Of a DNA stretch of 64,000 nucleotides, positions 18,269 through 36,836 are shown piece after piece. This DNA comes from an uncultured Clostridium sp. GTDB lineage: Bacteria > Bacillota > Clostridia > TANB77 > CAG-508. Below the pieces are notes generated by a model. That model made no database searches, was not told the origin of the DNA, and saw only the letters and a list, made by a program, of their open reading frames with translations. The stretch's first letter is position 1; each line of letters begins with the position of its first letter. Where the stretch lies: positions 4,492 to 68,491 of the forward strand of contig CAMEJH010000002.1 in assembly GCA_945919455.1 (NCBI GenBank), read 5' to 3'. A program made the position numbers and the translations under genes.

Positions 18269-18823
18269 TTAGAACATCTCTCTATTATACAGCGTCTCTG
18301 CAAAGTCTTTATACCCTTCTAATTCATCATTTATAAAATCTATATCTAGCTCTTCTCTTCCTTCATCATTTGGATAGTACTCTTCATATCCCCATATTCC
18401 TCCACAATCTTCTGGATATGCTCCTGATTTAGCTTTTATACAAATTGGATTTTCAAGTTTTTCATTTACTTCTTTTTCTAGTACAATGTCATGTATCCAA
18501 TCATCGCCAAAATCATATACAAATTTAATTCTTTTATATTTTTTTAAATATTTATCAATTTTTTCTTTTCCAGAGTCTAGTGTTTTTCCTCTTACATTTT
18601 CTATATCATATTCATCTTCTGCAGGTACTCCTATAAACTGTCCCCTTTTATGCAATGTTCCACCTACTTCAAATTCATATAAATGATATCCGCACCATTC
18701 AAATGCTATTTCTATTATTGCAGCTAAATCATTAAATGTGATATTAGCAGGTATCTTTAATCTTCTCCATGTTGGTGGATGTGATTCCCTTATCATTATT
18801 TTTATTTCATAATGCTTATTCAT
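18269..18823 (-). CDS. plasmid pRiA4b ORF-3-like family protein
   Basis: PPTWRRLKIPANITFNDLAAIIEIAFEWCGYHLYEF matches the hallmark IWRRIxVPxxxTLxDLHxxIQ...HLHEF pattern of PF07929-like proteins. Confidence 0.5.
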   Translation of the reverse strand: MNKHYEIKIMIRESHPPTWRRLKIPANITFNDLAAIIEIAFEWCGYHLYEFEVGGTLHKRGQFIGVPAEDEYDIENVRGKTLDSGKEKIDKYLKKYKRIKFVYDFGDDWIHDIVLEKEVNEKLENPICIKAKSGAYPEDCGGIWGYEEYYPNDEGREELDIDFINDELEGYKDFAETLYNREMF

Positions 18824-20027: not shown

Positions 20028-20417
20028 TTATCTTCCACCATTAATTAAGACTTTTAAATTATTCCATGTCCAATTGTATATTTTATCCGATGTTTTAGCA
20101 GCTTTTGGTTTTTTACAGATTTCGTTTGCTCTTCCATTTAAAAGAAAATATGGAATCCCCTCTTCTTGTGCTATTGATATTTCTGCAGAAACCCCTGTTG
20201 CCTCATCTGTATATTTACCACATATTACAGCTACAACATCACAGCCTTTTATTCTAGTTCTAGCTTTAGCTTTCCAATCATTGTCAATTGTTTCTTTTAT
20301 CGACATATCAGTTATCTCGAAAGGAGAATCTTCATTTCTCGCTTGTCCTACTAATAATGTTTTTAAATCAGAGTCATTGTCATAATCAAAGCTTATAAAT
20401 GTTCTTTTTTTAGACAT
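20028..20417 (-). CDS. TIR-like (DUF1863/MTH538-type) domain protein
   Basis: KRTFISFDYDNDSD opening typical of DUF1863 TIR-like proteins. 129 aa. Begins 18 nt after the caspase-like gene. Confidence 0.5.
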   Translation of the reverse strand: MSKKRTFISFDYDNDSDLKTLLVGQARNEDSPFEITDMSIKETIDNDWKAKARTRIKGCDVVAVICGKYTDEATGVSAEISIAQEEGIPYFLLNGRANEICKKPKAAKTSDKIYNWTWNNLKVLINGGR

Positions 20418-20435
20418 ATTATATCACCTCCATTT

Positions 20436-21404
20436 CTATATTTGTTTTTTATCTACAAGTCTCCAGTAATGATATCCTAGAGCAGTCAGTTTGCATGACT
20501 TAGAATTCATAGCGGCAAAATACATATGATCTTCATCTACTGGTACTACTAGTCCTACGCTAGCCAACTTTTGAAGTTCTTTAAATATTGCAACATTTTT
20601 TTCATCCGCATATGGTTCAATAACCTTATGTTCTATATCAATAGCATTAGTGTACTCGAATGATGGGTCTAACTTGAACTCTTCTTGTGGAGTTTTAAAA
20701 TATTTTGTTAGATTTCTAATAATACTAATTGGTACTTGTGGTTCTATTTCTCTAATTGAATTAAATTCTTTAACATTTGTTTTAAATATTGGTCTTTGAT
20801 CCCATTCTCCTAATGCTTGGTCAATATATGCATATATACTACTTGGCGTTATCTTTCCATTAATATTAGCAGCACCGCCTTTTAAACCTTCCAATAATAA
20901 ATTTGTAAATACACCATGTCCATTTATTTCTTTTGATGTTTCATAATCAAGGCTAGATGTAAGAATAGAAACTCCTTCAGATATTGTACATTCATATCCT
21001 GATTCTATACTTGGTTTGCCAATTGCTCCCGAATAACAACAATCAAGTATAATTATTTTGTTTCTAATTTTGGATGAATTTGCTATTTTCAGTATATCAT
21101 CCATTGAAATTCCCCAATCATTTTCTGTAAAATCTGGTGTAACTATATAGCCACCTAGTTCATTTATGTATCCGTGTCCAGAGAAATAAAATAGTGCTGT
21201 ATCAGTAGTTCCTTCAAATAGTTTTTTTATTAAACCTAATAACTCACCTTTTTTTTGAACATTTAATGCTGTTTTTACGTCAAAATTAGGAGAACCATCT
21301 CCATTAGTATCTATAATAGATGCCAATGCTGTTGCATCATTTATACAACAATTTAATTGGTTGTTTGGATAGTTATTTATCCCTACAATTAGTGCTTTAC
21401 TCAT
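20436..21404 (-). CDS. caspase-like peptidase (C14/metacaspase family) with a C-terminal ~130-aa domain of unknown function
   Basis: ALIVGINNY...CCINDA, catalytic His in FYFSGHG and catalytic Cys in IIILDCCYSG, as in metacaspases. Confidence 0.75.
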   Translation of the reverse strand: MSKALIVGINNYPNNQLNCCINDATALASIIDTNGDGSPNFDVKTALNVQKKGELLGLIKKLFEGTTDTALFYFSGHGYINELGGYIVTPDFTENDWGISMDDILKIANSSKIRNKIIILDCCYSGAIGKPSIESGYECTISEGVSILTSSLDYETSKEINGHGVFTNLLLEGLKGGAANINGKITPSSIYAYIDQALGEWDQRPIFKTNVKEFNSIREIEPQVPISIIRNLTKYFKTPQEEFKLDPSFEYTNAIDIEHKVIEPYADEKNVAIFKELQKLASVGLVVPVDEDHMYFAAMNSKSCKLTALGYHYWRLVDKKQI

Positions 21405-21514
21405 TTATCATACCTCCTCTTACTATAAATGAACGATTATCTCTCGATATCCTCATTTTTCTTTGTTTTTTATTTTTATTATTTTTATAATAATAATCTA
21501 GTATTTGTTTTTAT

Positions 21515-22084
21515 TTAATATTCTTTTAACTCACCACCACTTAGCCAATCCTTTAATGAAGTATATTTATTATTTACCTGTCCATCATTTACCCAAAAAT
21601 CATATTTACCACTTTTTTTATCTTTTGCATAATCAATATACGGATATATTCCTAAATATTCTAGCCCTTTATACTCATTGCTTCCATTATTTAAAATTGG
21701 TAATATTGCAGCTCTATTCTTTTTTCCATCTGCATATCCTAATTCCCAAGGGCACCACTTTGAATTAACAATATTTCCTGTAGCAATATAAGATAATCCT
21801 AAGCAATTATTTATTCGCTCTCTCAAAATTCTTGCTGTCTCTGATGATACATTTTCCCTGTCTTGCAATGAGCTTTCTTTCCAATCTATATAAACTTCAT
21901 ATCCTGCTTCTTCGAATTTTTCATATAATACTTCCACTAATTCTTTATCCATAAAACTATGCGAAATAAATAAATCATAATTTTTATTAACTATAAATTT
22001 TCTATTTTCTAGCAATAAAGAAAAATTATTAAAATTATTTTTTTTCTTTAATTCATTTTCTAAAAAGCTTTTAGTTAAAATCAT
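21515..22084 (-). CDS. TIR-domain protein (ThsB-like)
   Basis: DLFISHSFMDKELV...GYEVYID...SKWCPWELGYA contains the bacterial TIR motifs, including the conserved Glu in WCxxEL. Confidence 0.7.
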   Translation of the reverse strand: MILTKSFLENELKKKNNFNNFSLLLENRKFIVNKNYDLFISHSFMDKELVEVLYEKFEEAGYEVYIDWKESSLQDRENVSSETARILRERINNCLGLSYIATGNIVNSKWCPWELGYADGKKNRAAILPILNNGSNEYKGLEYLGIYPYIDYAKDKKSGKYDFWVNDGQVNNKYTSLKDWLSGGELKEY

Positions 22085-22185
22085 ATTTTCACCTCCAAAT
22101 TATTCATATATAACTGCTTATTTATTATATCAACTTAAATCTATTTTTTACATACTTAAAATGCGACAAAATAGTTATTTTTTAA

Positions 22186-22566
22186 CTATTTTGTCGCATT
22201 TTGTGTCATTTTATAATTTTCATAAAATTCATCCACATTATTTTTCTTTAAACATTCTCGAAGTGATTCTATAATTCTAACTTTCTCTTCTAGAGTAATA
22301 TTTTTACCTTTTAAAAATTTATCAGATATTTTTATGTATTCTTCTTCTGTTATTCTGTTTATTTCGAACAAATTATCTAAGCTTACTTCATATATATTAG
22401 CTAATTCTATTGCTTCTGTTATACTCATATCTCTTCTATTTGTTTCCCAACTTGAAACCTTTGAACGACTTATATCTAATTTTTCAGCCAACTGTTCTTG
22501 TGTAATTTTTTTACTTTTTCTTAATTCTTTTAATTTTTCTATTATTGCATAGTCCATATATTTCAT
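22186..22566 (-). CDS. XRE-family HTH transcriptional regulator
   Basis: ITQEQLAEKLDISRSKVSSWETNRR, the HTH_3 pattern. Confidence 0.65.
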   Translation of the reverse strand: MKYMDYAIIEKLKELRKSKKITQEQLAEKLDISRSKVSSWETNRRDMSITEAIELANIYEVSLDNLFEINRITEEEYIKISDKFLKGKNITLEEKVRIIESLRECLKKNNVDEFYENYKMTQNATK

Positions 22567-22683
22567 CCCTCTAGCTACTTATAACACATCTTTTATGCAT
22601 TTTTTGTCGAAACTTGTCAGTTGATATAAAAAAAGCAAAATAATTCTGTAAAACTAATTACATTATTATTTTGCTTTTTCAAA

Positions 22684-23913
22684 TTAATCTTTTTCTTTAA
22701 TCAACCAGTCCAATACATTTATCTTCTTTATTCCGTCAAAATCAGCATCTAAGTCATCATCTAATGTTAATATATATTTAGGATAATTATCGCTTATCTT
22801 CTTTAATGGAGCTAATTCTCTTTCTAATACGCTACTATTACCATCAGCAGATTCCCTTGTAGTTAATGCTACTTGATAATAAATTGTATTTTCTGAATTT
22901 TTTGCTACAAAGTCAACTTCTAAGTCATCATATTTTCCAATATAAACTTCATATCCACGCCTTAATAATTCAAGGTAGACTACATTTTCTAAGATATGTC
23001 CCATGTCTTTACCAGAGCCTTGACCTAACATATAATATCTAAGTCCTATATCTACTGCATAATATTTTTCCTGTGTTTTTAAAAATTCTTTTCCTTTTAT
23101 ATCATATCTATTTGCTTTATACACAATATAACTATCAATAAGTGCTTGAACATATGTTGAAACAGTATTATATGAATTATTTTTTTCAAGACCTTCAATA
23201 TTGTCACTTATGTTTTTCATACTTGTTCTATTTCCTATGTTATCATATAAATATTTAGTTACTCTTTCTAAGGTGTTTTTATCTGTTATTCCTTTTCTTT
23301 GCATTACGTCCTTAAATAAAATTGTATTGTATATTCCATCTAAAAACAAGTTAATATTTTCTGGATTAATTTTAAATAATTCGATTGCTTGTGGAAATGA
23401 ACTATATCGTAAATAATCTCTAAATTTTCTTGATAAATCTGTTTTATCTTCAAAAGCTGATAAATATTCTTTAAATGACAATGGCAACATTTTGATCTCT
23501 ATATATCTTCCTGTAAGTAATGTTGCAAGTTCTGATGATAAAAGCCAAGCATTTGATCCAGTTATATATAAATCAACATCTTTATTAATAAAAAGACTAT
23601 CTACTGTTTTTTCAAATTCACCAACTTTTTGAATTTCATCTAAAAATATATATGTTTTTTTACCTTTTACCAGTTTTGATTTTAAATATTCATATAATTT
23701 TTTTCTATCTTGTAATTCTTCATAATCTGCATCTTCAAAGTTGATTGATATGATTTGATTCTCTTCTACTCCATTTTCTTTCAAATAATCTTGAAATAAC
23801 TCTAATAAAGTAGATTTACCACATCTTCTAATTCCTGTTATTACTTTTATAATTTGTTGATCTTTGAAATTTCTTAATATAGATAAATAATCTTCTCTTT
23901 TTATTCTCTCCAT
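22684..23913 (-). CDS. AAA-family ATPase (AAA_14 + DUF4143 type)
   Basis: Walker A GIRRCGKSTLL, Walker B IFLDEIQ. ATG at 23913 with GGAGGAG RBS. The longer ORF to 23964 lacks an RBS. Confidence 0.7.
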   Translation of the reverse strand: MERIKREDYLSILRNFKDQQIIKVITGIRRCGKSTLLELFQDYLKENGVEENQIISINFEDADYEELQDRKKLYEYLKSKLVKGKKTYIFLDEIQKVGEFEKTVDSLFINKDVDLYITGSNAWLLSSELATLLTGRYIEIKMLPLSFKEYLSAFEDKTDLSRKFRDYLRYSSFPQAIELFKINPENINLFLDGIYNTILFKDVMQRKGITDKNTLERVTKYLYDNIGNRTSMKNISDNIEGLEKNNSYNTVSTYVQALIDSYIVYKANRYDIKGKEFLKTQEKYYAVDIGLRYYMLGQGSGKDMGHILENVVYLELLRRGYEVYIGKYDDLEVDFVAKNSENTIYYQVALTTRESADGNSSVLERELAPLKKISDNYPKYILTLDDDLDADFDGIKKINVLDWLIKEKD

Positions 23914-24086
23914 AAAATCTCCTCCAACTATTTTTATTATACTATTTTTTATTATTATAGTCAAGTTTTTTCAAATTTATGAAAAAACTTTTGAATTTTA
24001 TTAAGTTTTTTCATATCGAGAGTATAATAATATTATTTTTATCTATTAAAAACACTAAAACGACTATCAATAATAGCCGTTTTTTA

Positions 24087-24845
24087 TTAAAAAATACTTT
24101 CAAATTCTAAAGGAACTATATCTTCATATAATAAAGTAAACTGTGAATTAACTTGCCTATAATCATGATAATGTCCAAAATACCATTTATTAAACTTACA
24201 TTTTTCTGAAATTTCTTGTAAATAATCTGTTAAGATATCTTTTTTATAAGATGGATTCAATAGTGTTTGTATACTAGTTGGGCAACAATGAGAGATAATA
24301 TAATCAACTTTATAATTTACTTTTTCTAAATTCTTTATTCCGTTTTGCATTTCTTCTTCAGTTGGAAGTTCCAAATCCCACCATGAATAATCTCTTATTC
24401 TAAAATATGCACCCCTTTTTCTATATTCATATATTTTCTCTTCTTCATCTAAATTTAATATTCCATCTTGTATGTCATGTGACCTTGCACCACCAAATGC
24501 GAAAATCTTTTTATTATCTATTTCAAATATTTCTCCACGCATTAGATGTAATACTGAATCTCTTATTTTATGTACTTTACCACCATGCCACTCTTCTACA
24601 GGATATTTATATAATCTTGTAAAATTTTCGTGATTTCCATCTACAAATAATGTTGTAAAATTCTTTTCATCTAGATAATCCAACCAATACTTTTCTTGTA
24701 TATTTTCTTTTTCAAATGTCCAAACTCCACCAAAGTCGCCACATATTATTACATAATCATCTTTGGTCATTTCATTTTGAATTGGGAAGTTTTCGATTAA
24801 AAATCTGCTAAAATCAGCATGTGTATCTCCTGTAATGTAAATCAT
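24087..24845 (-). CDS. calcineurin-like metallophosphoesterase
   Basis: MIYITGDTHAD...ICGDFGG...GNHE motifs. Confidence 0.65.
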   Translation of the reverse strand: MIYITGDTHADFSRFLIENFPIQNEMTKDDYVIICGDFGGVWTFEKENIQEKYWLDYLDEKNFTTLFVDGNHENFTRLYKYPVEEWHGGKVHKIRDSVLHLMRGEIFEIDNKKIFAFGGARSHDIQDGILNLDEEEKIYEYRKRGAYFRIRDYSWWDLELPTEEEMQNGIKNLEKVNYKVDYIISHCCPTSIQTLLNPSYKKDILTDYLQEISEKCKFNKWYFGHYHDYRQVNSQFTLLYEDIVPLEFESIF

Positions 24846-24871: not shown

Positions 24872-25243
24872 TTATATTATACTATATACCCTCCTTTTTA
24901 AATTTATAATTACTATCCATATTGTTAAATTGACTATAAAAGATATCAATATAATATAAATCAAATTGAGTTTATTAAAATTATAACATAAAAAACTAAT
25001 TAAAGCGGTATTAAAAATATAATTTATGCAATATAATGCACATCCTAGCCAACTTGGGTGTCTTCCCTTTTCATAAATACTTGACGTTAGAAAAAAAGAA
25101 AGCATATGTAATATAGTCCCTCCAATAATTATGTTAAAAATATCTGCATATACACTTGATTCAAAATACATTGCATATGGATTTGATAAGCAAAACTGTC
25201 TTATAAATACACTTAGTATATTAAATACCTTATACATATACAA
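24872..25243 (-). CDS. small integral membrane protein
   Basis: 123 aa, with three or four hydrophobic helices. Confidence 0.35.
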   Translation of the reverse strand: MYMYKVFNILSVFIRQFCLSNPYAMYFESSVYADIFNIIIGGTILHMLSFFLTSSIYEKGRHPSWLGCALYCINYIFNTALISFLCYNFNKLNLIYIILISFIVNLTIWIVIINLKRRVYSII

Positions 25244-25292
25244 CCTCCTTTATAAATTTTTAGGCATCTAGATAAAAGATGCCTATATTATT

Positions 25293-25631
25293 TCATTTTT
25301 TGAATAACTGCTTAATTCGTTCAAATAGTCCTTTTTTATTATTTTTTTGTTGATAGCTTTCTAACCATTCAACATTATTATCTGTTATATAATAATGTGA
25401 CCTACATGGTATACTAAAGTTACCTATTGATGGTCTAAGTGTAATTGCTTGTCCATCATATTTCATTACCCATCCATATTTTTTATCGATAGGAGTTACA
25501 GTTCTTTCACCACATCCGCATGCACATCTATGTACAATAACATTACAACTAATGCACACATACAAAATACCATCCTTTAAGTTTGAAGGAATTTTATCAA
25601 CAAACTCAACTTTAAATTTATTAGTTTTCAT
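25293..25631 (-). CDS. Cys-rich (zinc-ribbon-like) small protein, operon partner of the E1-like gene
   Basis: CISCN...HRCACGCGER cysteine cluster. Overlaps the E1-like gene's stop by 11 nt. Confidence 0.4.
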   Translation of the reverse strand: MKTNKFKVEFVDKIPSNLKDGILYVCISCNVIVHRCACGCGERTVTPIDKKYGWVMKYDGQAITLRPSIGNFSIPCRSHYYITDNNVEWLESYQQKNNKKGLFERIKQLFKK

Positions 25632-26781
25632 GTACTATTTCTCCCATCTCAATTGAATAAACATTTTGGCATTGAGTATCATCATTTTCATATATTTTAA
25701 AATATTTTTTCCATTCTATAACTGCTATTGTTGCATTTAAAGCATTACATTCTGCAATTTGAATATTTGTATTATATACATCATTACCATCTTCATCAAA
25801 ATCAAGATATATAGGAATTCTGTCGTAATTAGTTTTGTTAAAGACAGTAGTTCTTACCTGACCATTTATAGTGTCATTTATATTTTGTAGCCCAATTCCT
25901 GTATCTATAAATGGTATTTCTTCTAAGACAAGATAATCTGTAATTAATTTTCTTGCTATTCCTGAATCAATACATATAAATACAAAATCCATATCTTTTA
26001 ATACACTAACATTTTCTTCTTTAATAAACATGTCATGTTCTATTAAATTTTTATGCATATTTTGATAATTTGCTTTAAAATAGCTTACCTTTGACATACT
26101 TTTTGGAAATATTTCTTTACTCGCTGCTCCAGGACTTCTAAAAGCATTATGCTGACAAAATACATCACCATCAATCAAATGTATTTCTTTGACATTAGTT
26201 TTCGAAACTAAATCAAGTATATATGCTCCAGTTCCTCCAAGTCCAATAATTGCTATTTTTTTGTCCAACATTTTTCTATTGCAATTGTCAATTCCTGCTC
26301 TTGATGAATTTGTATCAATATATTGAAATACTGATTCTTCTTCTGTTACCACTTTTTTAAATGTTTTTGCAGTTACTGAATTATCTTTATCTATTGCTCT
26401 AGAAGAAATTATATTAATATAATTTACAAATTTTTCATAATAATCTTTATAATTTTCATCTGGTTTATTTGAAAATGAGCGTTTCACATTTATTCCAGCT
26501 AAAATTGAATTGCTGGCACTATGCTTTATTTGTGTAATTTCTGTTCCATCTGCATTACAAGGTTGATCTCCTGAAAAATATATAACATGGTCTCCATTAT
26601 ACTTAGCCTTATCACCTTCAAAAGCAATGCTTGACACTAATGTACCATAATCTATTTCTCCATTTGCTTTCAAGTATGGGATATGGGAAACAATCCCATA
26701 TCCATTATTTACATCTAATTCATATCCTTCATTTTGAAGTTTTTTCAAATCATCGCTATGATTTATTAGTTCTTGTGACAT
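25621..26781 (-). CDS. E1-like (ThiF/MoeB/UBA-family) adenylyltransferase with an N-terminal ~170-aa extension (possible E2-like domain)
   Basis: Rossmann IAIIGLGGTGAYILDL and LIDGDVFCQHNAFRSPG (the DxDxV...N..R adenylation motif). N-terminal extension has a single Cys in GDQPCNADG. Confidence 0.6.
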   Translation of the reverse strand: MSQELINHSDDLKKLQNEGYELDVNNGYGIVSHIPYLKANGEIDYGTLVSSIAFEGDKAKYNGDHVIYFSGDQPCNADGTEITQIKHSASNSILAGINVKRSFSNKPDENYKDYYEKFVNYINIISSRAIDKDNSVTAKTFKKVVTEEESVFQYIDTNSSRAGIDNCNRKMLDKKIAIIGLGGTGAYILDLVSKTNVKEIHLIDGDVFCQHNAFRSPGAASKEIFPKSMSKVSYFKANYQNMHKNLIEHDMFIKEENVSVLKDMDFVFICIDSGIARKLITDYLVLEEIPFIDTGIGLQNINDTINGQVRTTVFNKTNYDRIPIYLDFDEDGNDVYNTNIQIAECNALNATIAVIEWKKYFKIYENDDTQCQNVYSIEMGEIVHEN

Positions 26782-27019
26782 TTATCCTCATTCCTTTCTT
26801 AACCATAACTACTTGTCCCTTTAATAAAAAACCATTTGGTTTTTCATTATTTCCTTTAAAATAAATTACAGTATAATTTGTAGAATCATTATCTTCATAA
26901 TGTCCAAAAGCTAATCTTATAACTTCCTCATATGAAATTTTTTCTTTTGCTACCTCTTTTTCTTCACCATTTATAAAAATAGTGATTTCATGTTTGTTTT
27001 TTAATTTTTCTTCTATCAT
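26756..27019 (-). CDS. small beta-grasp/ubiquitin-like (multiubiquitin-type) protein
   Basis: 87 aa with an EITIFINGEEKEV...ISYEEVIRLA pattern. Overlaps the E1-like start by 26 nt. No C-terminal Gly-Gly. Confidence 0.35.
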   Translation of the reverse strand: MIEEKLKNKHEITIFINGEEKEVAKEKISYEEVIRLAFGHYEDNDSTNYTVIYFKGNNEKPNGFLLKGQVVMVKKGMRINVTRTNKS

Positions 27020-27090
27020 TTATAATCTTTCCTTTCTTTAAAAAATAAGCAAAAGAACAAGGCAATGCAACTTTAGGCCTTGTTCTTATT

Positions 27091-27321
27091 TTATCCTCTA
27101 GGAGGATATGGATCTTTACCATAAGTATTCTTACTTTGAATTCTTCCATTTAATCCATGTATTATATGTTCAGAATTATTCTGTTTGGCAATTAATCTTC
27201 CAGCATTTTGAGCATCTTGCTTAGTAGCATATGTATTGATTGCCTTTGATGTATTTTCAAATTTGTTTTGCCAACCATTTTTGTTATGAACAGTATGTAC
27301 ATTTTTGTTCATTTTTTTCAC
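27091..27321 (-). CDS. DUF2188-family small protein
   Basis: HVVHNKNGWQNK...DAQNAGRLIAKQN...YGKDPYPP matches the DUF2188 pattern. Confidence 0.5.
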   Translation of the reverse strand: MKKMNKNVHTVHNKNGWQNKFENTSKAINTYATKQDAQNAGRLIAKQNNSEHIIHGLNGRIQSKNTYGKDPYPPRG

Positions 27322-27461
27322 CTGCCTTTCATAAATTTTCTATAAAAGGCTTGCAATATTTTATTATAAATGATATAATTTTAATACTATAAACACTTGC
27401 AAGCCGTTTATGCTGTAAGTTTTTTGAAAAAAGTTAGGGCCTAATCTAGCTTTTTTCTTTT

Positions 27462-28199
27462 TTATTTTATGTCTTCCATAACTAACTGATTCTTAATACT
27501 TTTATCATCATTTGTATCTTTTATTCTTATTTCAGCTGCTTGTTTAGAAACTCCACAAGTTTCAGATATTTCTTTTGCCATTTGTTTTATATCCTTATTA
27601 TTATAATTTTCTGAATAATATTGCTTTATTAATCTTCTAGGCATCAATATTGATGCTCCAAAATAATTTGCTTGCCATTCTAGCCAATCCAAATCTGTTT
27701 TTAATCCACCTGCAATAACTTTATTATCAACTACATCTCTATTTAAACACTTTATGCAATCATTATCTGTTATATCTCCTATAATATCAAATAAATTTAT
27801 TTGATTTTCATCTTCTATAAATTCTTTTCTATGTAAAATCCAATGTCCCAATTCATGTGCTAATGTAAATTGATATCTTCCTTGTAGCTTCAAGTCGTTA
27901 ATCAGTATTTCATTCAAGATAATAGTTCCTTTTTCAAATTTCTTCTTGCAAGGTGTACTATCCTCATTAATCACATCAACATATCCAGTTTTAAATATTG
28001 TCATGCCTAATAAATCACCATTTTCATCTAATTTTTGGTATTCAATTTTTAAATTCAATTTAAATTCTGCAATACTTTCTAAATCAATAATATTTAACTC
28101 TTGCAATGAATTAGGTGAATATTCTTCCAGAAATCTAATAGCTTCATTGTCTATATCACCTTTACATAATATTTTACTTTTTCTTATTTTCATCACCAT
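27462..28199 (-). CDS. ImmA/IrrE-family metallopeptidase (DUF955)
   Basis: HEXXH motif TLAHELGHWILH. Overlaps the upstream XRE gene. Confidence 0.7.
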   Translation of the reverse strand: MVMKIRKSKILCKGDIDNEAIRFLEEYSPNSLQELNIIDLESIAEFKLNLKIEYQKLDENGDLLGMTIFKTGYVDVINEDSTPCKKKFEKGTIILNEILINDLKLQGRYQFTLAHELGHWILHRKEFIEDENQINLFDIIGDITDNDCIKCLNRDVVDNKVIAGGLKTDLDWLEWQANYFGASILMPRRLIKQYYSENYNNKDIKQMAKEISETCGVSKQAAEIRIKDTNDDKSIKNQLVMEDIK

Positions 28200-28512
28200 C
28201 TTTCTTGTTTCTTTTCATATCCCTTAGCAGTGTAATAACTTGTAAATTTTCTTTAACAAATTCTTCTACATCTGCTGGAATTGTATCTTTTGCTTTTCCT
28301 GCTAAATCATATAATTCTCTTTGTTCTTCTTCATCTAATTTTAATATTTCAATAACTTTTTGTAGTTTTTCATATGATAAAGCATTTCTTCTATTGTTTT
28401 CCACATCACTTAAATATGCTGGTGATATGTCAAGTTCTTTTGCTAACATTCTTAAGGACATTTCTTTTTCTTTTCTTTTATTGGTTAAATATTCACCAAA
28501 TGTTATATTCAT
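28174..28512 (-). CDS. XRE-family HTH regulator paired with ImmA/IrrE
   Basis: MSLRMLAKELDISPAYLSDVENNRR. Confidence 0.7.
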   Translation of the reverse strand: MNITFGEYLTNKRKEKEMSLRMLAKELDISPAYLSDVENNRRNALSYEKLQKVIEILKLDEEEQRELYDLAGKAKDTIPADVEEFVKENLQVITLLRDMKRNKKDGDENKKK

Positions 28513-28621
28513 ATTTATTCCCCTTTCAATTGCATGTCAGCTTGTATGCTTACATGTTATCATTTTTTTTATTGTTTGTCAAGTATTTTTTTAAATTTAA
28601 TTAGAGATACAAAATGTATCT

Positions 28622-31282
28622 CTAATCATACTTATATTCTTCGCTTTCTTCTGCTACTTTTAATATATCACTTTCTATTTCTTCTTGTGTATATTTAATT
28701 TCATTGTCTAAAACATTTTCACTCATTATCGTACTTGATTTATAAATAGTATATTTCATTTTACTCTCTGATGCAATTTCTAACGCTGCATTTTTCTTTG
28801 CACTTACTACAGCATCATCTACTTTATTGTCTCCTTTTACTTCTATTATTTCATAAGTGTCATTTTCAAATTTTGCAATGAAATCAGGATAATACTTTCT
28901 TAAAGAATTCGAATCTGGATCTATGTATTGTATGTAAAAATCGGTTTGCGATGCATTTGTAAACATTCCTGTAAAGTAGATTTCTTTTATTTTTTTATTC
29001 TTAATATATTGCAGAAACAATTCTTTTTCTGGTTTAGAATCAAAGCAATATGTATCAGCATGAAAGCTCTTATTCCTAGCACCTAAAATTTGTAAGTCTT
29101 TATTAGTTATAACCAATTCTGGTTTAGCTTTAAATGTATAATATTCTTCTTCTGGCTGTTTTAATAGAACAACTTCTTTATCTTCTGTTGTAGTATCTTT
29201 TTCAAGCTCATAAGCAAAATCTACTATTTTAGGTATAATCCAATCGTATAAAATTTGATTATATTTACTTACTATTTCAATAACCTTGTTTATATCATTT
29301 TTTAATATTTTTTTTACTTCAGAACATTTCATATCTCCAATATATCTTGCAATTTCACTATATAGCATAATCTCACTATATCGAATATTTTCTTGTGAAG
29401 ATTCTATTTCTTTTACTTTAGCTACTCTTGAATCTGCTAAACTTTCTTTTTTTATAATCTTAGATTTATATTTTTCCAAATCAATTTTTTCTAATTCTAA
29501 GTTAATACAAGTATGTTCATTATATTTTTTAACCAAATTATACTTATGATTTATATTTTTAATTTTTATATATCTTGGTGGTGGAACTACTTTTACTTCA
29601 TATATTCGTTTATCATCATTTTCTCTATTCTTTATATCTTTAACAGACATCTTAAAGTTTTTGTTTAATTCATTATCTAATATTTCATAATTATCCTTTG
29701 ATAAATACACAGATGCTGTTTGTTGAATATTTGTAATTTTTCTTAGGCATCTCATTGTCGCTTGTAAAACAAATATTGAAGAATCTGGACTTCTATATAA
29801 TGCTACTCCAAATAAAGATCGACAATTCCACCCTTCTTTTCCTTTTCCAACCAAGATTATAAATTGCTTATTACTTTTTTCTGTATCTAAATTATTAAAT
29901 TCATTTATATCATTATCTTTAGTTAATTTATTATCTCCTACGTTAATTAATATTTTATCTCTTGGAATATTTAATTCCTCTAATACTTTTTCTAATGTAG
30001 GTACAATTTCTTCTTCAACTTCTTTTATTTCACTACCATATATAGCAAGTTTTGGTAGCATATTTTCATATCTTTTTTCTCCATATGTATACCAAAAATC
30101 TTTTACAACATTTCTTATAAAAGTTTCATTTTTTACATTTTCAAAAGCTTGTGGTTCAGCATCTTTTAAATAACCATTAGCAATTGATTCTCTTAATCCA
30201 TATGAATATATTACTTCTGGAAGAATATTATTTCCAACATAAGGTGTACCTGTATAATTATAGCATGCTACTACTCTGCTTCCTTTTTGATTTAATCTAT
30301 TAGCCAATATATTAATAGTTGTTCTTAGACTACTTTTACTTTTATCATATAAGTCCTTGTCTAATTGTTTTCCAAACAAATGATGAGCTTCATCAACATA
30401 TATTCCAAGCTGACTTAATCTTGTTATCTTTTCAAATCTTTGATTAAATATCAAATCTCCCTCTTCCATATGTTGTTCAACGCCATATAACTCAGAAAAA
30501 ATATCATCTATTTCACTTTTTCTCTCTTTATCACTAAATAGCATTTGAATAGGTGTATCTTCTGTATGTTTTTTTCTTAATATAATTTTTTGATTATTAG
30601 AAATAATCACATTAAAATCAGAATCATCCAATGTATTTAAAGTCGTTCCTGTCTCCTCTAAAAAATGAAATTTGATATTACTATCTAATATTCTTACATA
30701 TTCATTCGGAATTACTTTTGATTTATCAAAAGTTTGTATTTCTTTTAAGGATTGCAATACTGTCTTATCTGGCGAAAACACCAATGCATTGTGACAAAAT
30801 CTTGGATCATCAGGATATTTGTTTGCTAATAGGAATTCATAAAATATACATGTCGCCATAAGAATAGTTTTTCCTAATCCCATTGTCAATGCAAATATAT
30901 AATTTGAATAGGTTTCTTTATATTTTATTAACATTTCATATACTTCTTTATATTCTTTTGTTGAATATTCAAAAATATCTATCTGATTATTTTCACCAAT
31001 TTTTAGCTTACTATCAGAAAAACATCCTTTTTTCTCCATCCAATCTTTAAAAATCTCGCTTACTGATTGATTATTTAAAAATTCCTTAATAAAGACATAC
31101 ATTTCTAAGGCTTCAAATTGTGGTTTTCTAAGGAAAGCATCCGGATTACATTCTTTATCATTATAATCTAAATATTTTTTTGTTAAATCTTTATAACTTT
31201 TTTTTATTACTTTTTTGTTTGTATCATAAAAAAATTTTAATGCTTGAAAAAAAGATGTTTGTAAGTTCATATTATTACTCAT
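28622..31282 (-). CDS. res: Type III restriction enzyme Res subunit (SF2 helicase + C-terminal PD-(D/E)xK)
   Basis: Motif I MGLGKT, motif II VDEAHH. C-terminal YYPDF...YEIIEVKG nuclease core. 8-nt overlap with the upstream Mod gene. Confidence 0.75.
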   Translation of the reverse strand: MSNNMNLQTSFFQALKFFYDTNKKVIKKSYKDLTKKYLDYNDKECNPDAFLRKPQFEALEMYVFIKEFLNNQSVSEIFKDWMEKKGCFSDSKLKIGENNQIDIFEYSTKEYKEVYEMLIKYKETYSNYIFALTMGLGKTILMATCIFYEFLLANKYPDDPRFCHNALVFSPDKTVLQSLKEIQTFDKSKVIPNEYVRILDSNIKFHFLEETGTTLNTLDDSDFNVIISNNQKIILRKKHTEDTPIQMLFSDKERKSEIDDIFSELYGVEQHMEEGDLIFNQRFEKITRLSQLGIYVDEAHHLFGKQLDKDLYDKSKSSLRTTINILANRLNQKGSRVVACYNYTGTPYVGNNILPEVIYSYGLRESIANGYLKDAEPQAFENVKNETFIRNVVKDFWYTYGEKRYENMLPKLAIYGSEIKEVEEEIVPTLEKVLEELNIPRDKILINVGDNKLTKDNDINEFNNLDTEKSNKQFIILVGKGKEGWNCRSLFGVALYRSPDSSIFVLQATMRCLRKITNIQQTASVYLSKDNYEILDNELNKNFKMSVKDIKNRENDDKRIYEVKVVPPPRYIKIKNINHKYNLVKKYNEHTCINLELEKIDLEKYKSKIIKKESLADSRVAKVKEIESSQENIRYSEIMLYSEIARYIGDMKCSEVKKILKNDINKVIEIVSKYNQILYDWIIPKIVDFAYELEKDTTTEDKEVVLLKQPEEEYYTFKAKPELVITNKDLQILGARNKSFHADTYCFDSKPEKELFLQYIKNKKIKEIYFTGMFTNASQTDFYIQYIDPDSNSLRKYYPDFIAKFENDTYEIIEVKGDNKVDDAVVSAKKNAALEIASESKMKYTIYKSSTIMSENVLDNEIKYTQEEIESDILKVAEESEEYKYD

Positions 31283-32975
31283 TTATTTTAATCTCCCTTT
31301 CATATGTTTCAGATAACAAATCTGTAATTTTTATTTTTATATTAGTTGCATTATCAGGTATTTCATATTCACCATTTACTAAATCATTTTTTTCAGCAAT
31401 ATCAATCATCTTTGGCTCCATAACTGCACCATCATAATTCCAGTCAATCATTATTGATTCTACCATTTGCTTCCAATCTTCAACATATTCTTTTTGCAAG
31501 CTTAACTTTTGTAATAAATTCATTGGATAGAACTCTTTTATTTTCAATTTATTGTCTTCTATTTCTATAACAGCCTCCGAATCACGCTTGAATTGTAAAT
31601 TTGCTTTGTCTTTCAGTATGTCCAATATTTCTATATCTATATTATAGTTACTCAAATCCTGCTCAAGTGTTGGTTTTATATCTGGTTCATGACCCATACA
31701 TACAATTGTTATTTTTTCAACTGGTTCAAAAGGATTTTCAGCTTTTCTTTTTTCAAACTTTTGATATGGAAGATTGGCTTTTAGTTCTTCTAAATCTGAT
31801 TTAGTAGCAATTCTATTTACAGGCATGATTTTTATCATTCTACCATCTAATTCTCCATCATAAACACTATTTCCATCAAATTTCTGTATTCCTAATGCGT
31901 CAATTAATAAATCTTTTGCTTCTATAGGATTTCTAAAGAAATCATAATTATTTACATTATATACTTCAAATCCTGTATATTTATCATTTTCTAATTCTTT
32001 AGCTATATTTATTAATCTTTTTGTTGTAGTTTGTATAGCACCTAAATTTATATCTGCCCCTATAAACTTTCTTCCTAATTTCATTGCAACCGCTTGAGTT
32101 GTACCACTTCCCATAAAACAGTCAAATACAATATCCCCTGGATTTGAAGATGCACTTATTATTCTTTCTATTAATGCTTCAGGTTTTTGCGTTGGATATT
32201 GTAATCTTTCAATTGCCTGTGAATTAATATATGGAATATCCCAAACATCTCTCATACTTGACCATCTATATACACCATCTTCATCTTCAAAAAATTCTGT
32301 ATCAGCTGCTCCATAATTTACAATTCCAGCTTTTCTACCTTTTGCCTTTGTATATGATTTTTCTTTTTGCTCATTAAACACTCTATTTTCACTTTTAGTA
32401 TATAGAAAAATATTATCATGCTGCTTATTAAATTCATTTTTACCTCCAGCAGCAGTTTTATAAGACCAAATAATTTCATTTACAAAATTACTTGTTCCAA
32501 AAACTTCATCACATAACATTCTCAAATGATGTGCTTTATGCCAATCACAGTGTATATAAAAACTCCCTTTGTCAGATAATAACTCTTTTAATAAAATTAA
32601 TCTTTCATACATAAATTGTAAATACTCATCATTTGTCCATATATCACCATATTGTTTTTCTTCAAATGAATTATTATCATTACATATCTTTCTCCCTTTT
32701 AAACTAATTGTTTTTTTGTAATCTGCCTTAGAATCAAAAGGCGGATCAATATATATTAAATCTATTTTTCCCCTATATTCTCTTAACATATGGCTCATTA
32801 CTTGAAGATTATCTCCCCAAAATATCTTATTAATCCAATCATCCTTCATTTCACCATATTTTTCTTTTAATTGTGCAGGATAATAATCTGTACCTCTATA
32901 TGGTCTTTTTCCTGTCCAATGTAATTCTGGATATCCCTTTATTGTATTTATTCTATCAAATTCAAAATCACTCAT
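31275..32975 (-). CDS. mod: Type III restriction-modification Mod subunit (N6-adenine/N4-cytosine DNA methyltransferase)
   Basis: DPPF motif (IYIDPPFDS) and AdoMet-binding FDCFMGSGTT. Confidence 0.8.
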   Translation of the reverse strand: MSDFEFDRINTIKGYPELHWTGKRPYRGTDYYPAQLKEKYGEMKDDWINKIFWGDNLQVMSHMLREYRGKIDLIYIDPPFDSKADYKKTISLKGRKICNDNNSFEEKQYGDIWTNDEYLQFMYERLILLKELLSDKGSFYIHCDWHKAHHLRMLCDEVFGTSNFVNEIIWSYKTAAGGKNEFNKQHDNIFLYTKSENRVFNEQKEKSYTKAKGRKAGIVNYGAADTEFFEDEDGVYRWSSMRDVWDIPYINSQAIERLQYPTQKPEALIERIISASSNPGDIVFDCFMGSGTTQAVAMKLGRKFIGADINLGAIQTTTKRLINIAKELENDKYTGFEVYNVNNYDFFRNPIEAKDLLIDALGIQKFDGNSVYDGELDGRMIKIMPVNRIATKSDLEELKANLPYQKFEKRKAENPFEPVEKITIVCMGHEPDIKPTLEQDLSNYNIDIEILDILKDKANLQFKRDSEAVIEIEDNKLKIKEFYPMNLLQKLSLQKEYVEDWKQMVESIMIDWNYDGAVMEPKMIDIAEKNDLVNGEYEIPDNATNIKIKITDLLSETYEREIKINE

Positions 32976-32986
32976 TATTTGCCCCC

Positions 32987-35869
32987 TTATTTTTTACAAT
33001 AAAATCTCAAATCACAGTTATCACATATAGTTTGTGATTTAGATTTATTTTTAAATTCTTTACATTCTATTTTATTTACTATTTTATCAAACTCTTTTAT
33101 TGTTTCTTTTACATCATCTTCTCTATTATAAAATGTAATTGTTGGTACTCCATTTTTTTCTCCTGTATAATATAAGTGCATTTTACTTACTTTTTTCCCT
33201 GTTTTCTTTTCAACTAAATATGCATATATTTGTAACTGTCTTTTATACCTCTCAAATTTTTCAGGATCAGAAAATATGTCAGGTTTTTTTTCAGATTTGA
33301 AATCTACAATTTCAACAGTTTTTTCATTTCCTTCTATTAAATCTACTACTCCATTTAATATATAATTTGGTTTTACAAGGCCAATCTGTACTTCTGCATC
33401 TTGTACTTTTTTCCAATTATCACTTTGTTTTTCTGCATATCTAATTACTTGTTCTAATGCAACATCTAATTGTGGTTTACCCAAATATGAATGTTGCACT
33501 TTAGATATTGCCTCATAGTTTGTATCAAACCAAATTTTTATATTATCTCTATTTATTTTTTCATATTCTTTTTTTATAGCAGCCTTATGAATATCTTCTA
33601 TTGTTTGATGTATTAATTGTCCAAATATTGTTGCACCAACTCTTACAGGTGAAAAGCCTAATTCCTTTAAAAACTTATATTGTAATGAACAATTTTCATA
33701 TACCGATATATGTGATGTAAATGAATACGTATTTTTTATATTTACTGGTTTTATATTACTTATCTTTACTTTATCTAATTCAATTATTTCATCAGTATAG
33801 TATGGCAATTCATTATATATCTCTTTAAAATAATCACTCGGTTGTTTTCTGCCTTGATCTTTTTCATTACAAGTCAATAACAACAAATTTTGTGCTCTTG
33901 AAAATGCTGTATAATATAATCTCCAAAAATCAAAATATTTAATATCTTCTTTGGGTTCAAAAGATTTTCTATGATAATATTTTTTTTCTATTTCAATTAA
34001 TTTTGAATTATTTTTTTCTCTTGGAACATTTCCTAATGAATCAACAATTACAATTGGAAACTCCATTCCTTTTGCTTGATGTATTGTTGAAAATGTTATA
34101 CATCCACTTGGAGCATATTCTGATTCATCTTCATATTCACTCATTCCGCCATCTTTTAAAAATCTCAAATATGTATTAAAGAATGTTTCCACATCTTTGG
34201 TAATTCTCTTTGGTGTAAATACATCTATATGCTGTAAATAATCAAATCTAGCAATCATTTGTGTAAATATTGATATATTCCTTATTGGCCTTTGATCAAT
34301 TACTCCATTATTTAAATCTATATTTAAAAATCCTCTAAATGGTTCAAATTCAAATAATTTATACAATAATCCTGTAAATGCATAATCTGTATTTGCAAAT
34401 AAATTCATATGACTTATTCCTGAATTTTTAATAAACAACTTTAATTGTTCATCACTACAAATAAATCCTTCAATTGATTTTATACATTCTTCATAATATG
34501 TAAATAATCCTTCATTTTTTAACTTAAAAGATCTATTTCTTAATTTTAATAAATATTGTGGAAATACTAATAATAATGCCCCTATTAGTCCTTTTATTTC
34601 TTCTCGCTCAAAAAACATATTCGATCTTGGAGAATATACATTAACTCCATTTTTTTCAAGATAATTTGCTAACTCTACTACTTTTGCCCCTCTTACAGAA
34701 TTGAATAACATAGCAATTTGATTATAATTATCTATTATTTTTTCTTCTTTCAATTTTATAATAAATTTTAAAATTTCTTTCTGCCAATCTTCTTCGCTAT
34801 CATTAACTCCTATTTTCATTACTGTAGGTTTATCGCAAATATCATTTCTTCCTGGAATCATTTCTTTATCAAATCTATATTTATCCCATTTAAAACTAAA
34901 GCTTTCTCCATCAGTTGTTTTCATCCATTTATTATAAAAATCAATAATACCTCTTTCTGACCTAAAATTAGTTTCTAATTTTATTTTTTTGCATTCATGA
35001 CTTTCAAATTTTTCTGGAAATTCAATTATATTCCTTATTGTTGCACCTCTAAACCTATATAATCCCTGATCATCGTCACCCACAACACAAATATTCTGTT
35101 CTTTACCTGCCAACATAAAAGTTAACTGTTCTTGTACATAATTAGTATCTTGATATTCATCTATCATTACATATTTAATTTTTTCATTTATCTTCTTTAA
35201 AATATTCGGATTATTAATTAACAATTCATAAGTTTCCGTTTGTATATGTGTAAAATCAATATAATTTAATTTTAAAATCATATCATTATATAATTTAATT
35301 ATTTTCCCTATAGTAACTATTTCTGGATTATCATCACTTATTAATTGATTTATATCTACTAATTCTTCATTAATATTATTTATATAATCTGCAATATGTT
35401 GTGATAATCTCCATCCACTAATTTGATGTTGAAATAACAAATTAAAATCTTCTATTTTTTCAAATTTACTTAAATTTTGGTAAATTAAATATTCTTGTTC
35501 AAATTCATCTATCATTCTATAATTCTTTTTTAAATTTGTATATTCAATATTTTCTTTCAATATTCTCAAACAAATCGAATGAAATGTTCCAATATACATT
35601 TCATTAATATTTACATACATATCAAGTTTATCTAATTCATTAGTTATTCTTGTTACAATTTCCTTCGCAGCTTTCTCAGTAAAAGTTGCAATCATTATAT
35701 TTTCAGGCTTTACACCTTTTTCTGCAATTAAATATATCGTTCTTTGAACTAAAGTATACGTTTTTCCTGTTCCCGGACCCGCAATAATTAATAGAGGTCC
35801 TTCTGTTGTTTTAATAGCTTCTCTTTGACTAGCTGTTGCATTTTCTAGATTAATCATTTTTATCATCAC
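32987..35869 (-). CDS. UvrD/PcrA-like SF1 helicase fused to a C-terminal Cas4/RecB-like PD-(D/E)xK nuclease with a Cys cluster
   Basis: Walker A AGPGTGKTYTL. Nuclease core VVDLIEG...EIVDFKSEKK. Terminal CDNCDLRFYC. Confidence 0.7.
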   Translation of the reverse strand: MMIKMINLENATASQREAIKTTEGPLLIIAGPGTGKTYTLVQRTIYLIAEKGVKPENIMIATFTEKAAKEIVTRITNELDKLDMYVNINEMYIGTFHSICLRILKENIEYTNLKKNYRMIDEFEQEYLIYQNLSKFEKIEDFNLLFQHQISGWRLSQHIADYINNINEELVDINQLISDDNPEIVTIGKIIKLYNDMILKLNYIDFTHIQTETYELLINNPNILKKINEKIKYVMIDEYQDTNYVQEQLTFMLAGKEQNICVVGDDDQGLYRFRGATIRNIIEFPEKFESHECKKIKLETNFRSERGIIDFYNKWMKTTDGESFSFKWDKYRFDKEMIPGRNDICDKPTVMKIGVNDSEEDWQKEILKFIIKLKEEKIIDNYNQIAMLFNSVRGAKVVELANYLEKNGVNVYSPRSNMFFEREEIKGLIGALLLVFPQYLLKLRNRSFKLKNEGLFTYYEECIKSIEGFICSDEQLKLFIKNSGISHMNLFANTDYAFTGLLYKLFEFEPFRGFLNIDLNNGVIDQRPIRNISIFTQMIARFDYLQHIDVFTPKRITKDVETFFNTYLRFLKDGGMSEYEDESEYAPSGCITFSTIHQAKGMEFPIVIVDSLGNVPREKNNSKLIEIEKKYYHRKSFEPKEDIKYFDFWRLYYTAFSRAQNLLLLTCNEKDQGRKQPSDYFKEIYNELPYYTDEIIELDKVKISNIKPVNIKNTYSFTSHISVYENCSLQYKFLKELGFSPVRVGATIFGQLIHQTIEDIHKAAIKKEYEKINRDNIKIWFDTNYEAISKVQHSYLGKPQLDVALEQVIRYAEKQSDNWKKVQDAEVQIGLVKPNYILNGVVDLIEGNEKTVEIVDFKSEKKPDIFSDPEKFERYKRQLQIYAYLVEKKTGKKVSKMHLYYTGEKNGVPTITFYNREDDVKETIKEFDKIVNKIECKEFKNKSKSQTICDNCDLRFYCKK

Positions 35870-35919
35870 CTATTTCATTTCTTAATACATTCCATTTTTC
35901 TTTATCGTTAAGTATAAAA

Positions 35920-36168
35920 TTATATATGTCTGCTGGTAGTTCTCCGTCTTTCTTTAGCAGCAAGATCAAAAAATCTTGTTTTCTCTGTTTGATTTAATTC
36001 TAATGCATTTGCTATATTGATTTGAGTATTTATGTCTGGAGGATTCTTCTTTCCACTCATTAAATCTAACAAATATGGGTGAGTAATTTTTGATAAAGAA
36101 GCTATTTTTCTAATTGAGTTTTTATTGGATTTACATTTTCTATTTAAAAAACTACTAAACTTATTCAT
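35920..36168 (-). CDS. small HTH (XRE-like) protein
   Basis: SIRKIASLSKITHPYLLDLMSGKKNP. Confidence 0.4.
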   Translation of the reverse strand: MNKFSSFLNRKCKSNKNSIRKIASLSKITHPYLLDLMSGKKNPPDINTQINIANALELNQTEKTRFFDLAAKERRRTTSRHI

Positions 36169-36346
36169 TTGAATCCCTTTCTATGATAACCGGTATATAC
36201 CAGTTACCATATATTAAATCACATATTAAGTGTAAAAACTATTACATTTACATTAAGTTTTTGTTACAAAGTCCATTTTTTTGTAATATTTTCTTGACTA
36301 TTTATTTTTATTAAGCTTAAATACACAACCAACTGGAGGTGATAAT

Positions 36347-36619
36347 ATGAATTCAAAGACCATTCTATCTCTATATAATGGAGATTATTCTTGTATTGAA
36401 AGACCTATACCAAAAGATTCCAAATATGCTAAAGCATTGTCTAAATGTACTGACTTGCAAGAAAAATTAGCTCAATTAGTGGATAAAGAAACCTTTTCTT
36501 TAATAGAAAAAGTTTTAGAATATCAAAGTGAATTATCTGCTATTGAAATGGAAGAAGTATTTTCAGAAGGCTTTTCTTTAGCTGTATCTTTACTGCTGGA
36601 AGCGATTTCAAAGGAATAA
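36347..36619 (+). CDS. hypothetical small helical protein
   Basis: GGAGGTG RBS 5 nt upstream of ATG. 90 aa. Confidence 0.4.
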   Translation: MNSKTILSLYNGDYSCIERPIPKDSKYAKALSKCTDLQEKLAQLVDKETFSLIEKVLEYQSELSAIEMEEVFSEGFSLAVSLLLEAISKE

Positions 36620-36625
36620 TATACC

Positions 36626-36712: not shown

Positions 36713-36836
36713 GTCTTTATATTTTCGGTATGTAATTTTTATTTATATTTCCATACTTTTAAGTATTATCTACCAATTATCACATAAAAAAAATAGTAAC
36801 TACTTATTTAGTAATTACTATTTACCTTTCTTATTT

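Follow-up and report, generated by a model that had tools for sequence, protein, structure and literature searches.

The window analyzed here is a stretch of 64,000 nt from an uncultured Clostridium sp., with an average G+C content of about 26% and nearly all of its genes on the minus strand, and the element in question is a cassette of three overlapping genes at positions 25293-27019 of that strand. The first gene, bubA (26756..27019), encodes an 87-aa ubiquitin-like protein (Ubl) with a single beta-grasp domain and the C-terminus ...NVTRTNKS-COOH, which is matched by the Pfam family Multi_ubiq (E-value 9.9e-13; 48.5 bits against a cut-off of 24.5). It overlaps by 26 nt with bubBD (25621..26781), whose 386-aa product is an E2-E1 fusion consisting of an E2-like domain (DUF6791, 1.4e-52, 178 bits; residues ~1-160, with His65, Ser104, and Lys106) and an E1 adenylation domain (ThiF, 2.8e-17, 63 bits; residues ~168-386, with GLGGTG at 180-185, D204, R215, K231, D272, and the crossover-loop Tyr336). 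The latter gene overlaps in turn by 11 nt with bubE (25293..25631), encoding a 112-aa Cys-cluster protein that is a predicted serine protease and deconjugase (DUF6527, 7.8e-22, 77 bits). Since all of these scores lie far over the curated cut-offs and the same trio recurs, with the same 26-nt overlap, in every related locus checked across several phyla, the three genes are not chance open reading frames (ORFs). An earlier reading of this DNA (hereafter the first-pass annotation) had listed these frames and their overlaps together with the GLGGTG and adenylation motifs, a single N-terminal cysteine, and a cysteine cluster, and each of them was found where it had been placed.

Operons formerly designated 6E/DUF6527 were renamed Bub (bacterial ubiquitination-like) in two preprints from the Corbett laboratory, and the Type II (6E.2) operon bubA-bubBD-bubE was described by Ye, Gong, Chambers, and Corbett (bioRxiv 10.1101/2024.11.21.623953). 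The gene order and domains found in the window (Multi_ubiq, DUF6791 plus ThiF, DUF6527, and no JAB) match the published Type II definition exactly, and no Pfam match to JAB/MPN was obtained among the operon proteins or the scanned neighbors. Besides, DUF6527 corresponds to PF20137, which carries the label "BubE" in the newer precomputed Pfam labels of related contigs. Because the domain content, the gene order, the residues of BubBD, BubA, and BubE, and an upstream capH/capP pair agree with the published system, the locus is assigned to Type II Bub as a complete and canonical 6E.2 operon, of a kind already described and partly characterized (probability of about 0.93). The first-pass annotation had proposed a conjugation system of the Bil, 6E, or Cap2 kind, of which the 6E type was retained and the Bil and Cap2/CBASS types were discarded, as their components are absent. 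The Type II Bub system of E. coli ZDHYS365 (PDB 9cd2 being its BubA) has the same gene order and domains, a BubA ending in ...T[DN]KS, no JAB, and an association with capH/capP that is common to both. The differences are that BubA has one beta-grasp domain and 87 aa here and three domains and ~222 aa in E. coli, and that in the present locus capH-capP are co-directional with the operon and followed by a DUF2188 gene, a membrane-protein gene lies after bubE, and the host is a low-GC gut member of the Clostridia.

The beta-grasp fold anticipated for the 87-aa protein is borne out by its Multi_ubiq score and by its match to E. coli BubA (PDB 9cd2; E 1.7e-10), which is aligned to the last residue (...VTRTNKS versus ...VTQTDKS). 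A single-domain Ubl is one of the catalogued BubA architectures, and a three-domain form is also known, according to the companion preprint. We compared 17 Type II BubA sequences from Clostridia, Terriglobia, Dehalococcoidia, Gammaproteobacteria, Alphaproteobacteria, Bacteroidota, and Cyanobacteriota, and in every one of them NV[TS]xT[DNG][KRQ]S stands directly before the stop codon. The absence of a C-terminal Gly-Gly, which had been correctly noted at the outset together with the absence of a JAB/MPN gene, is therefore a trait of the Type II family and not a defect, as all 17 proteins end in serine. In Type I BubA, a C-terminal glycine is exposed after JAB cleavage, as described in the Corbett-laboratory preprint. 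The conserved C-terminal serine (26756-26779), as opposed to the glycine of Type I BubA and of eukaryotic Ubls, is not discussed in those portions of the two preprints that were searched. The overlap of bubA with bubBD (26756-26781) is likewise constant, as it measures 26 nt in every Type II locus checked (L001-L012 and L023-L026, from Clostridia to Cyanobacteriota and Proteobacteria), and its DNA encodes in two frames both the C-terminus of BubA (...NVTxTxKS*) and the N-terminus of BubBD (MSQxLIxxS.DLK), each of them conserved. Such constancy suggests translational coupling of the two genes. The terminal serine and the 26-nt overlap can serve as practical annotation markers for the Type II family.

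Conservation in BubBD was read from alignments of 96 and 144 representatives (35-60% identity), and an exhaustive HMMER search with this protein returned 433 cluster representatives at E<1e-30. The columns that are invariant in both alignments include H65, S104, G180, G182, G185, D204, R215, K231, Y336, Q341, and N346, and the segment DGDVFCQHNAFR includes D204, D206, N212, and R215. K106 is conserved in 86% of the sequences, beside 100% for Y336, S104, and H65. Over its full length the protein is 42% identical to BubBD of E. coli ZDHYS365 (385 aligned columns, E 9e-92), a sequence taken from Table S2 of the paper and machine-read from its PDF, and it is 47% identical to the BubBD of a Runella slithyformis plasmid, a species included in the alignment of the paper. 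S104 aligns with E. coli S106 within a common FSNKP motif and K106 with K108, while R215 and Y336 correspond to E. coli R219 and Y342. It has been reported that the E. coli substitutions S106A, R219A, and Y342F abolish conjugate formation and that mutation of K108 does not, and that Bub chemistry proceeds through oxyesters and not thioesters (10.1101/2024.11.21.623953). The predicted nucleophiles of the present BubBD are Ser104 and Tyr336, in a putatively cysteine-free reaction that is consistent with the published oxyester mechanism.

The fold of the protein leads to the same family. An AlphaFold2 model of BubBD built from the 96-sequence alignment reached a mean predicted local distance difference test (pLDDT) score of 93.6, and its sole weak stretch, residues 331-340, is the crossover loop that bears Y336. 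In a Foldseek search with this model, the Citrobacter BubCD chains came out on top, ahead of UBA5, PaaA, MccB, and ThiF, and at the sequence level, too, the adenylation domain matched the Citrobacter BubCD structures best among the PDB entries, so that the E1 domain of this Type I Bub system (6E.1; Citrobacter sp. RHBSTW-00271, with BubAB, BubCD, and BubE in PDB 9ea4, 9ea5, 9ea8, 9eae, and 9eav) is the best match both in structure and in sequence. The Citrobacter system shares with the present one the zinc site and the identical Ser/His spacing of BubE, as well as a catalysis free of cysteine. It differs in that Type I joins the Ubl with the E2 and the E1 with a JAB peptidase, whereas the present system has a standalone Ubl and an E2-E1 fusion, and in the companions of the E2 serine, which are His and Asp in Type I and Lys and His in Type II. 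Among the other collections, the full-length NCBIfam model NF004805 (PRK06153) gave 477 bits with BubBD against a cut-off of 352, and its name is only "hypothetical protein"; NCBIfam holds no model for BubA, BubE, the DUF2188 protein, or the membrane protein. The 2023 release of PADLOC contains no Bub models, and in it BubA and BubE had no matches, while BubBD matched only the Cap2 "E1-E2" models through its Rossmann core (up to 3.5e-11).

The third protein of the operon had been regarded as Cys-rich and zinc-ribbon-like; the cysteine cluster was confirmed and its identity was revised to a DUF6527/BubE protease. It displays a putative C4 zinc site (C36, C38, C40, and C75) and a predicted Ser68/His78 dyad, and its Ser-7-Cys-3-His spacing is identical to that of S92/C99/H102 in Citrobacter BubE. 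According to the Corbett-laboratory preprint, the Citrobacter enzyme is a serine protease and uses that Ser/His pair as its catalytic dyad in removing BubA conjugates. All six residues are kept in every aligned locus that covers them and in four plasmid copies. The protein is 49% identical across its core to the BubE of E. coli ZDHYS365, in which the same C4 site and Ser/His dyad occur. A PDB search with BubE recovered no homolog, in agreement with the statement of the paper that it has no structural relatives. Moreover, an amphipathic tail at approximately residues 90-112 includes the segment GLFERIKQLFKK, which corresponds to the published hydrophobic or amphipathic C-terminal extensions that the authors suggest mediate peripheral membrane association. 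The 112-aa BubE is thus predicted from its residues to be the protease of the system itself, filling the role expected of a JAB enzyme. Since BubE is the protease, the lack of JAB is normal for Type II Bub, and the suspicion of a variant or incomplete system, raised in the first-pass annotation, does not hold: a missing JAB defines the type, BubE takes the place of the protease, and a C-terminal serine is the norm.

Three other readings of the E1-like enzyme were weighed against the Type II Bub assignment, and all of them are improbable. The one that survives best, although we give it very little credence, is a thioester cascade of the Cap2 kind (Type II CBASS [antiphage signaling based on cyclic oligonucleotides], Pycsar, or 6A-MBL) or of the Bil kind, with Cys75 as the catalytic cysteine of the E2. 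The order of the E2 and E1 domains does resemble that of Cap2, the PADLOC models for Cap2 match the adenylation domain, and Cys75 is the majority residue in its column. Type II CBASS Cap2/Cap3 also has in common with the present locus an E2-E1 fusion, a defense context, a dedicated deconjugating protease, and possible control by CapH/CapP. However, the PADLOC and NCBIfam matches to Cap2 are confined to the Rossmann part (residues ~168-290) and in no case extend into the E2 region, and Cap2 uses catalytic cysteines, conjugates a CD-NTase and not a Ubl, and is paired with a JAB-type protease, whereas no gene for a CD-NTase, a cyclase, an MBL protein, or JAB/Cap3 lies nearby. Bil (BilABCD) resembles Bub in its defense context and in having E1 and E2 activities that conjugate a Ubl; nevertheless, it depends on an E2 that is a protein by itself, on a JAB protease, and on an E1 of the IAD-AAD-CYS type, none of which is present here, and it is characterized by thioester chemistry and a demonstrated anti-phage role. 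The proposal that the cysteine of GDQPCNADG, which is the only one within the N-terminal ~166 residues of BubBD, forms the active site of the E2 was likewise abandoned: C75 is conserved in 69% of the 144 homologs and lost in 31%, the other cysteines of BubBD are conserved even less, so that none is strongly conserved, and Ser104, His65, and Tyr336 do not vary and correspond to the residues identified by mutagenesis in E. coli, where S106A and Y342F abolish conjugation.

Less probable still is a system resembling MccB or PaaA, of the RiPP type (peptides synthesized ribosomally and modified post-translationally), in which a small precursor would be adenylated at its C-terminus by the E1-like enzyme and yield a modified peptide instead of a protein conjugate. 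The adenylation domain has both enzymes among its closer matches in fold and in sequence, and the C-terminal residue of the substrate is not glycine. Against this, BubA is no short leader-core peptide but a folded domain of the beta-grasp type with a solved Ubl as its homolog, the N-terminal domain of BubBD is UBC/BubB-like and not the RiPP recognition element (RRE)-type peptide clamp of MccB, no microcin-type export or immunity genes were found, and protein-protein conjugates have been published as the products of Type II Bub. The least tenable alternative, to which we attach almost no weight, is a sulfur-carrier or cofactor pair (of the ThiS/ThiF or MoaD/MoeB type) in which the beta-grasp protein would be adenylated for thiocarboxylate formation: a ThiF Pfam domain is present, ThiF, MoeB, Uba4, and TcdA are among the distant sequence or fold matches, and one database source names a close homolog "molybdopterin/thiamine biosynthesis adenylyltransferase", but the NCBIfam ThiF/MoeB models score 22-36 bits against cut-offs of 150-450, BubA has a conserved serine in place of the C-terminal Gly-Gly, no gene for ThiG, ThiH, MoaE, a rhodanese, or a cysteine desulfurase lies nearby, sulfur transfer has no use for a fused E2-like domain or a DUF6527 protease, and the cassette is mobile among defense islands and plasmids. 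With the ThiF/MoeB models so far below their cut-offs and no thi or moa genes in the vicinity, the initial view that this is not a thiamine or molybdopterin locus was upheld.

The Type II Bub assignment also takes into account the genes upstream of the operon, all of them on the minus strand. A capH-like helix-turn-helix (HTH) repressor (28174..28512; Pfam HTH_3 2.6e-11, PADLOC capH 1.3e-6) overlaps by 26 nt with a capP-like Zn-metallopeptidase of the M78/ImmA/IrrE type (27462..28199; Peptidase_M78 2.8e-14, PADLOC capP 3.6e-20, with HELGH in the translation), and this CapH and CapP pair upstream of the bub operon is predicted to be responsive to DNA damage. CapH and CapP accompany 168 of the 544 catalogued Bub operons (31%), according to the Corbett-laboratory preprint. 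Between capP and bubA lies a gene for a small DUF2188 protein (27091..27312; Pfam DUF2188 9.7e-18, PADLOC PDC-S16 1.4e-26), of 73 aa if started at its ATG and of 76 aa from the GTG at 27321 given in the ORF list. DUF2188 is a published associate of CapH/CapP modules, and it is also found upstream of bubA in L001, L007, and L018-L022 and in the Bub locus of a Sulfitobacter plasmid. A terminator-like hairpin (27040..27087), with an 11-bp stem AAGAACAAGGC/GCCTTGTTCTT, a 13-nt loop, and a subsequent T-rich tract, sits between the DUF2188 gene and the ribosome-binding site of bubA (RNAfold, -15.5 kcal/mol), and seven related loci preserve its stem even though the loop differs and one pair has changed from G-C to G-U. 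There is no space for a promoter between this hairpin and bubA.

A likely mechanism for the Type II Bub operon can be transferred from the E. coli and Citrobacter systems, and its support at the present locus is the conservation of residues. ATP-dependent BubA conjugates formed through oxyester intermediates were demonstrated for the E. coli and Citrobacter proteins only. By analogy, a BubBD dimer would bind ATP through the E1 domain (GLGGTG, D204, R215, K231, and D272) and adenylate the C-terminal carboxylate of BubA (Ser87), after which Tyr336 on the flexible crossover loop would attack the adenylate to give a BubA~Tyr oxyester. BubA would then pass to Ser104, located in the E2-like part of the fusion close to His65 and Lys106, and from there to a lysine of a target protein. 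BubE, stabilized by zinc and acting through Ser68/His78, would strip BubA from its targets and so restrain the pathway, and CapH would repress the locus until it is cleaved by CapP after DNA damage or phage infection.

Several points weigh against this assignment or limit its reach. The Bub activity of the present locus is predicted from its genes and sequences, and Bub operons are not known to protect against phages, so that "defense" is a contextual term. The machine-read copy of E. coli BubBD is imperfect, being two residues off register by R219 and showing R where the paper has Y342; because of these reading errors, the equivalences of R215 with R219 and of Y336 with Y342 rest on a constant offset, and that of Y336 also on the invariance of the loop tyrosine given in the paper. 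Regarding the N-terminal domain, the comparison by hhalign of its profile with Citrobacter Type I BubB gave a probability of 0.6% and no significant match, the profile of the full-length alignment retrieved only E1-type chains and no E2 among the PDB sequences, and the E2-like relationship was detected neither by Foldseek nor by hhalign. Since no similarity to BubB or to PDB E2 proteins was found at the sequence level, the E2 assignment, which had been put forward as possible at the start and proved correct, rests on the fold and on the published Type II work. Additionally, capH and capP are co-directional with the bub genes here, as opposed to divergent in the published cases, and the conserved terminator-like hairpin just upstream of bubA obscures the source of bub transcription.

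Other elements of the upstream region vary among relatives. The capH/capP genes are divergent in other relatives, and in the close relatives L004-L006 (about 4062-5542) capH-capP-DUF2188 is replaced by genes for a 285-aa kinase-like ATPase and a 190-aa protein, which by position and sequence look like the published CapK/CapS. A CapK/CapS pair was later described upstream of Bub operons, with a reported placement right after a restriction-modification (R-M) system. A 1042-aa protein encoded upstream of the pair in L004-L006 was read, without a family scan, as a candidate Type I restriction subunit, and in L009 (4063-5486) the upstream pair consists of 132-aa and 340-aa proteins that are toxin-antitoxin-like in appearance, also without a family scan. 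In the window, a promoter-like site lies upstream of capH (28554..28582, minus strand; TTGACA-17-TAACAT with an extended TG), which is a pattern match only; in the promoter consensus scan overall, such sites were no more numerous than in shuffled sequence. The spacer between capP and the DUF2188 gene (27313-27461, minus strand) contains an AT-rich hairpin directly after capP and the inverted elements GGCTTGCAA ... TTGCAAGCC around an AT-rich stretch, which may be an operator. A search for a motif common to this spacer and to the region upstream of capH found none.

Downstream of bubE, by 55 nt and preceded by a small hairpin as well as a strong AGGAGG site, lies the gene for a predicted three-helix membrane protein of 121 aa (24872..25237, minus strand; hydrophobic segments at ~31-52, 63-85, and 91-113 by hydropathy). 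Its start at the ATG at 25237, 6 nt after AGGAGG, fits the N-termini of its homologs, and the ORF list calls a TTG at 25243. Between the bubE stop codon and this gene, a 9-bp inverted repeat TAGGCATCT...AGATGCCTA (25261-25285) has a T-run on the plus strand only. Conserved neighbors had been suggested as a line of inquiry, and the comparison revealed, besides the recurrence of the trio, that in each of the 23 related loci of Clostridia where the membrane-protein gene is present at full length (L001-L009, L013-L022, and L031-L034), this gene comes next after bubE. This synteny persists down to 45% identity of the membrane protein (62% for BubBD), even though the genes beyond differ between loci, and in one sub-lineage the start codon of the membrane protein lies 2 nt after the stop codon of bubE. 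The family comprises 35 clusters and has no Pfam or NCBIfam match, and the distant Type II Bub operons that were checked do not carry the gene.

No full-length copy of the membrane-protein gene was found away from bubE, and the sole stray copy is a truncated chimeric remnant beside a transposase-like gene. In L027-L030 the resemblance of this 109-aa chimeric protein to the membrane protein is limited to the C-terminal half of the latter (86% identity), and its gene adjoins an HTH_38 (transposase-like) gene, while in L028 and L029 it lies directly upstream of a 253-aa Metallophos gene resembling one that flanks the present cassette. The chimera looks like a remnant left after replacement of a Bub cassette. 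The gene that follows the membrane-protein gene in the window (24087-24845, minus strand) encodes a 252-aa metallophosphoesterase-like protein (a weak Metallophos_2 match and PADLOC PDC-S10 at 3.5e-8), which is kept in L001, L002, and L004-L006, reduced to a short remnant in L003, and absent in other relatives. As it is not kept in all relatives, it is less tightly tied to Bub.

It is conceivable, if on balance doubtful, that the membrane protein is a true fourth component of Bub in the Clostridia lineage, either as an anchor or partner for the tail of BubE or as an effector or target that gives the output of the system. The evidence for a functional link is the synteny, and the protein could be a partner, an effector, a target, or a hitch-hiker. 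It is possibly the only new point of the present locus, as it is absent from the published description of Type II Bub, and a search of the supplements of the paper in text form found no mention of Clostridia, DUF2188, or transmembrane partners. If the fourth-component proposal were true, the membrane protein would offer a first means of finding out on what the Bub pathways act, a point left open by the literature.

Bub is a recently described, cysteine-free relative of ubiquitination, and the locus adds nothing new in kind to it; its interest lies mainly in the question of what Bub systems do and in the Clostridia membrane protein as a candidate partner, effector, or target. The analysis does show that Type II Bub is very common in uncultured Clostridia of human and animal guts. 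Approximately 8,000 homologs were scored in a large protein database, the best 120 of them at 75-99% identity, and the nearest genomes are metagenome-assembled genomes (MAGs) of uncultured gut Clostridia, among which UMGS1852 and a MAG from water-deer caecum are 99% identical. Homologs of BubBD were also found on 131 plasmids from many phyla, and a search of 50,697 phage records gave no match. In related contigs the flanking genes vary and the cassette is intact, often adjoining TnpV or integrase genes, and for this reason the results point to a module that is mobile among defense islands and plasmids, with interchangeable regulators.

In the present genome, that of an uncultured gut Clostridia bacterium, the bub cassette sits in a defense island, and family scans of the neighboring genes, all on the minus strand, confirmed the context that had been proposed. 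On the downstream side (20028-23964), defense-type genes encode ThsB-like TIR (129 aa), caspase-like Peptidase_C14 (322 aa), TIR_2 (189 aa), and HTH (126 aa) proteins, as well as an ATPase of the AAA_14/DUF4143 kind (426 aa). Directly upstream of capH (28622-38591) lies a Type III-like R-M pair, consisting of an 886-aa res protein with a TnsA-like endonuclease C-terminus and a 566-aa N6_N4 methylase, and beyond it are genes for a UvrD helicase of 960 aa that includes a PD-(D/E)XK/Cas4-like nuclease and for a KAP NTPase of 584 aa. That capH/capP come right after an R-M system echoes the reported placement of capK/capS. The same island also encodes two proteins of uncharacterized families, namely a 428-aa DUF6996+DUF6997+DUF7226 protein (14038-15324) and a 184-aa PRiA4_ORF3-like protein (18269-18823).

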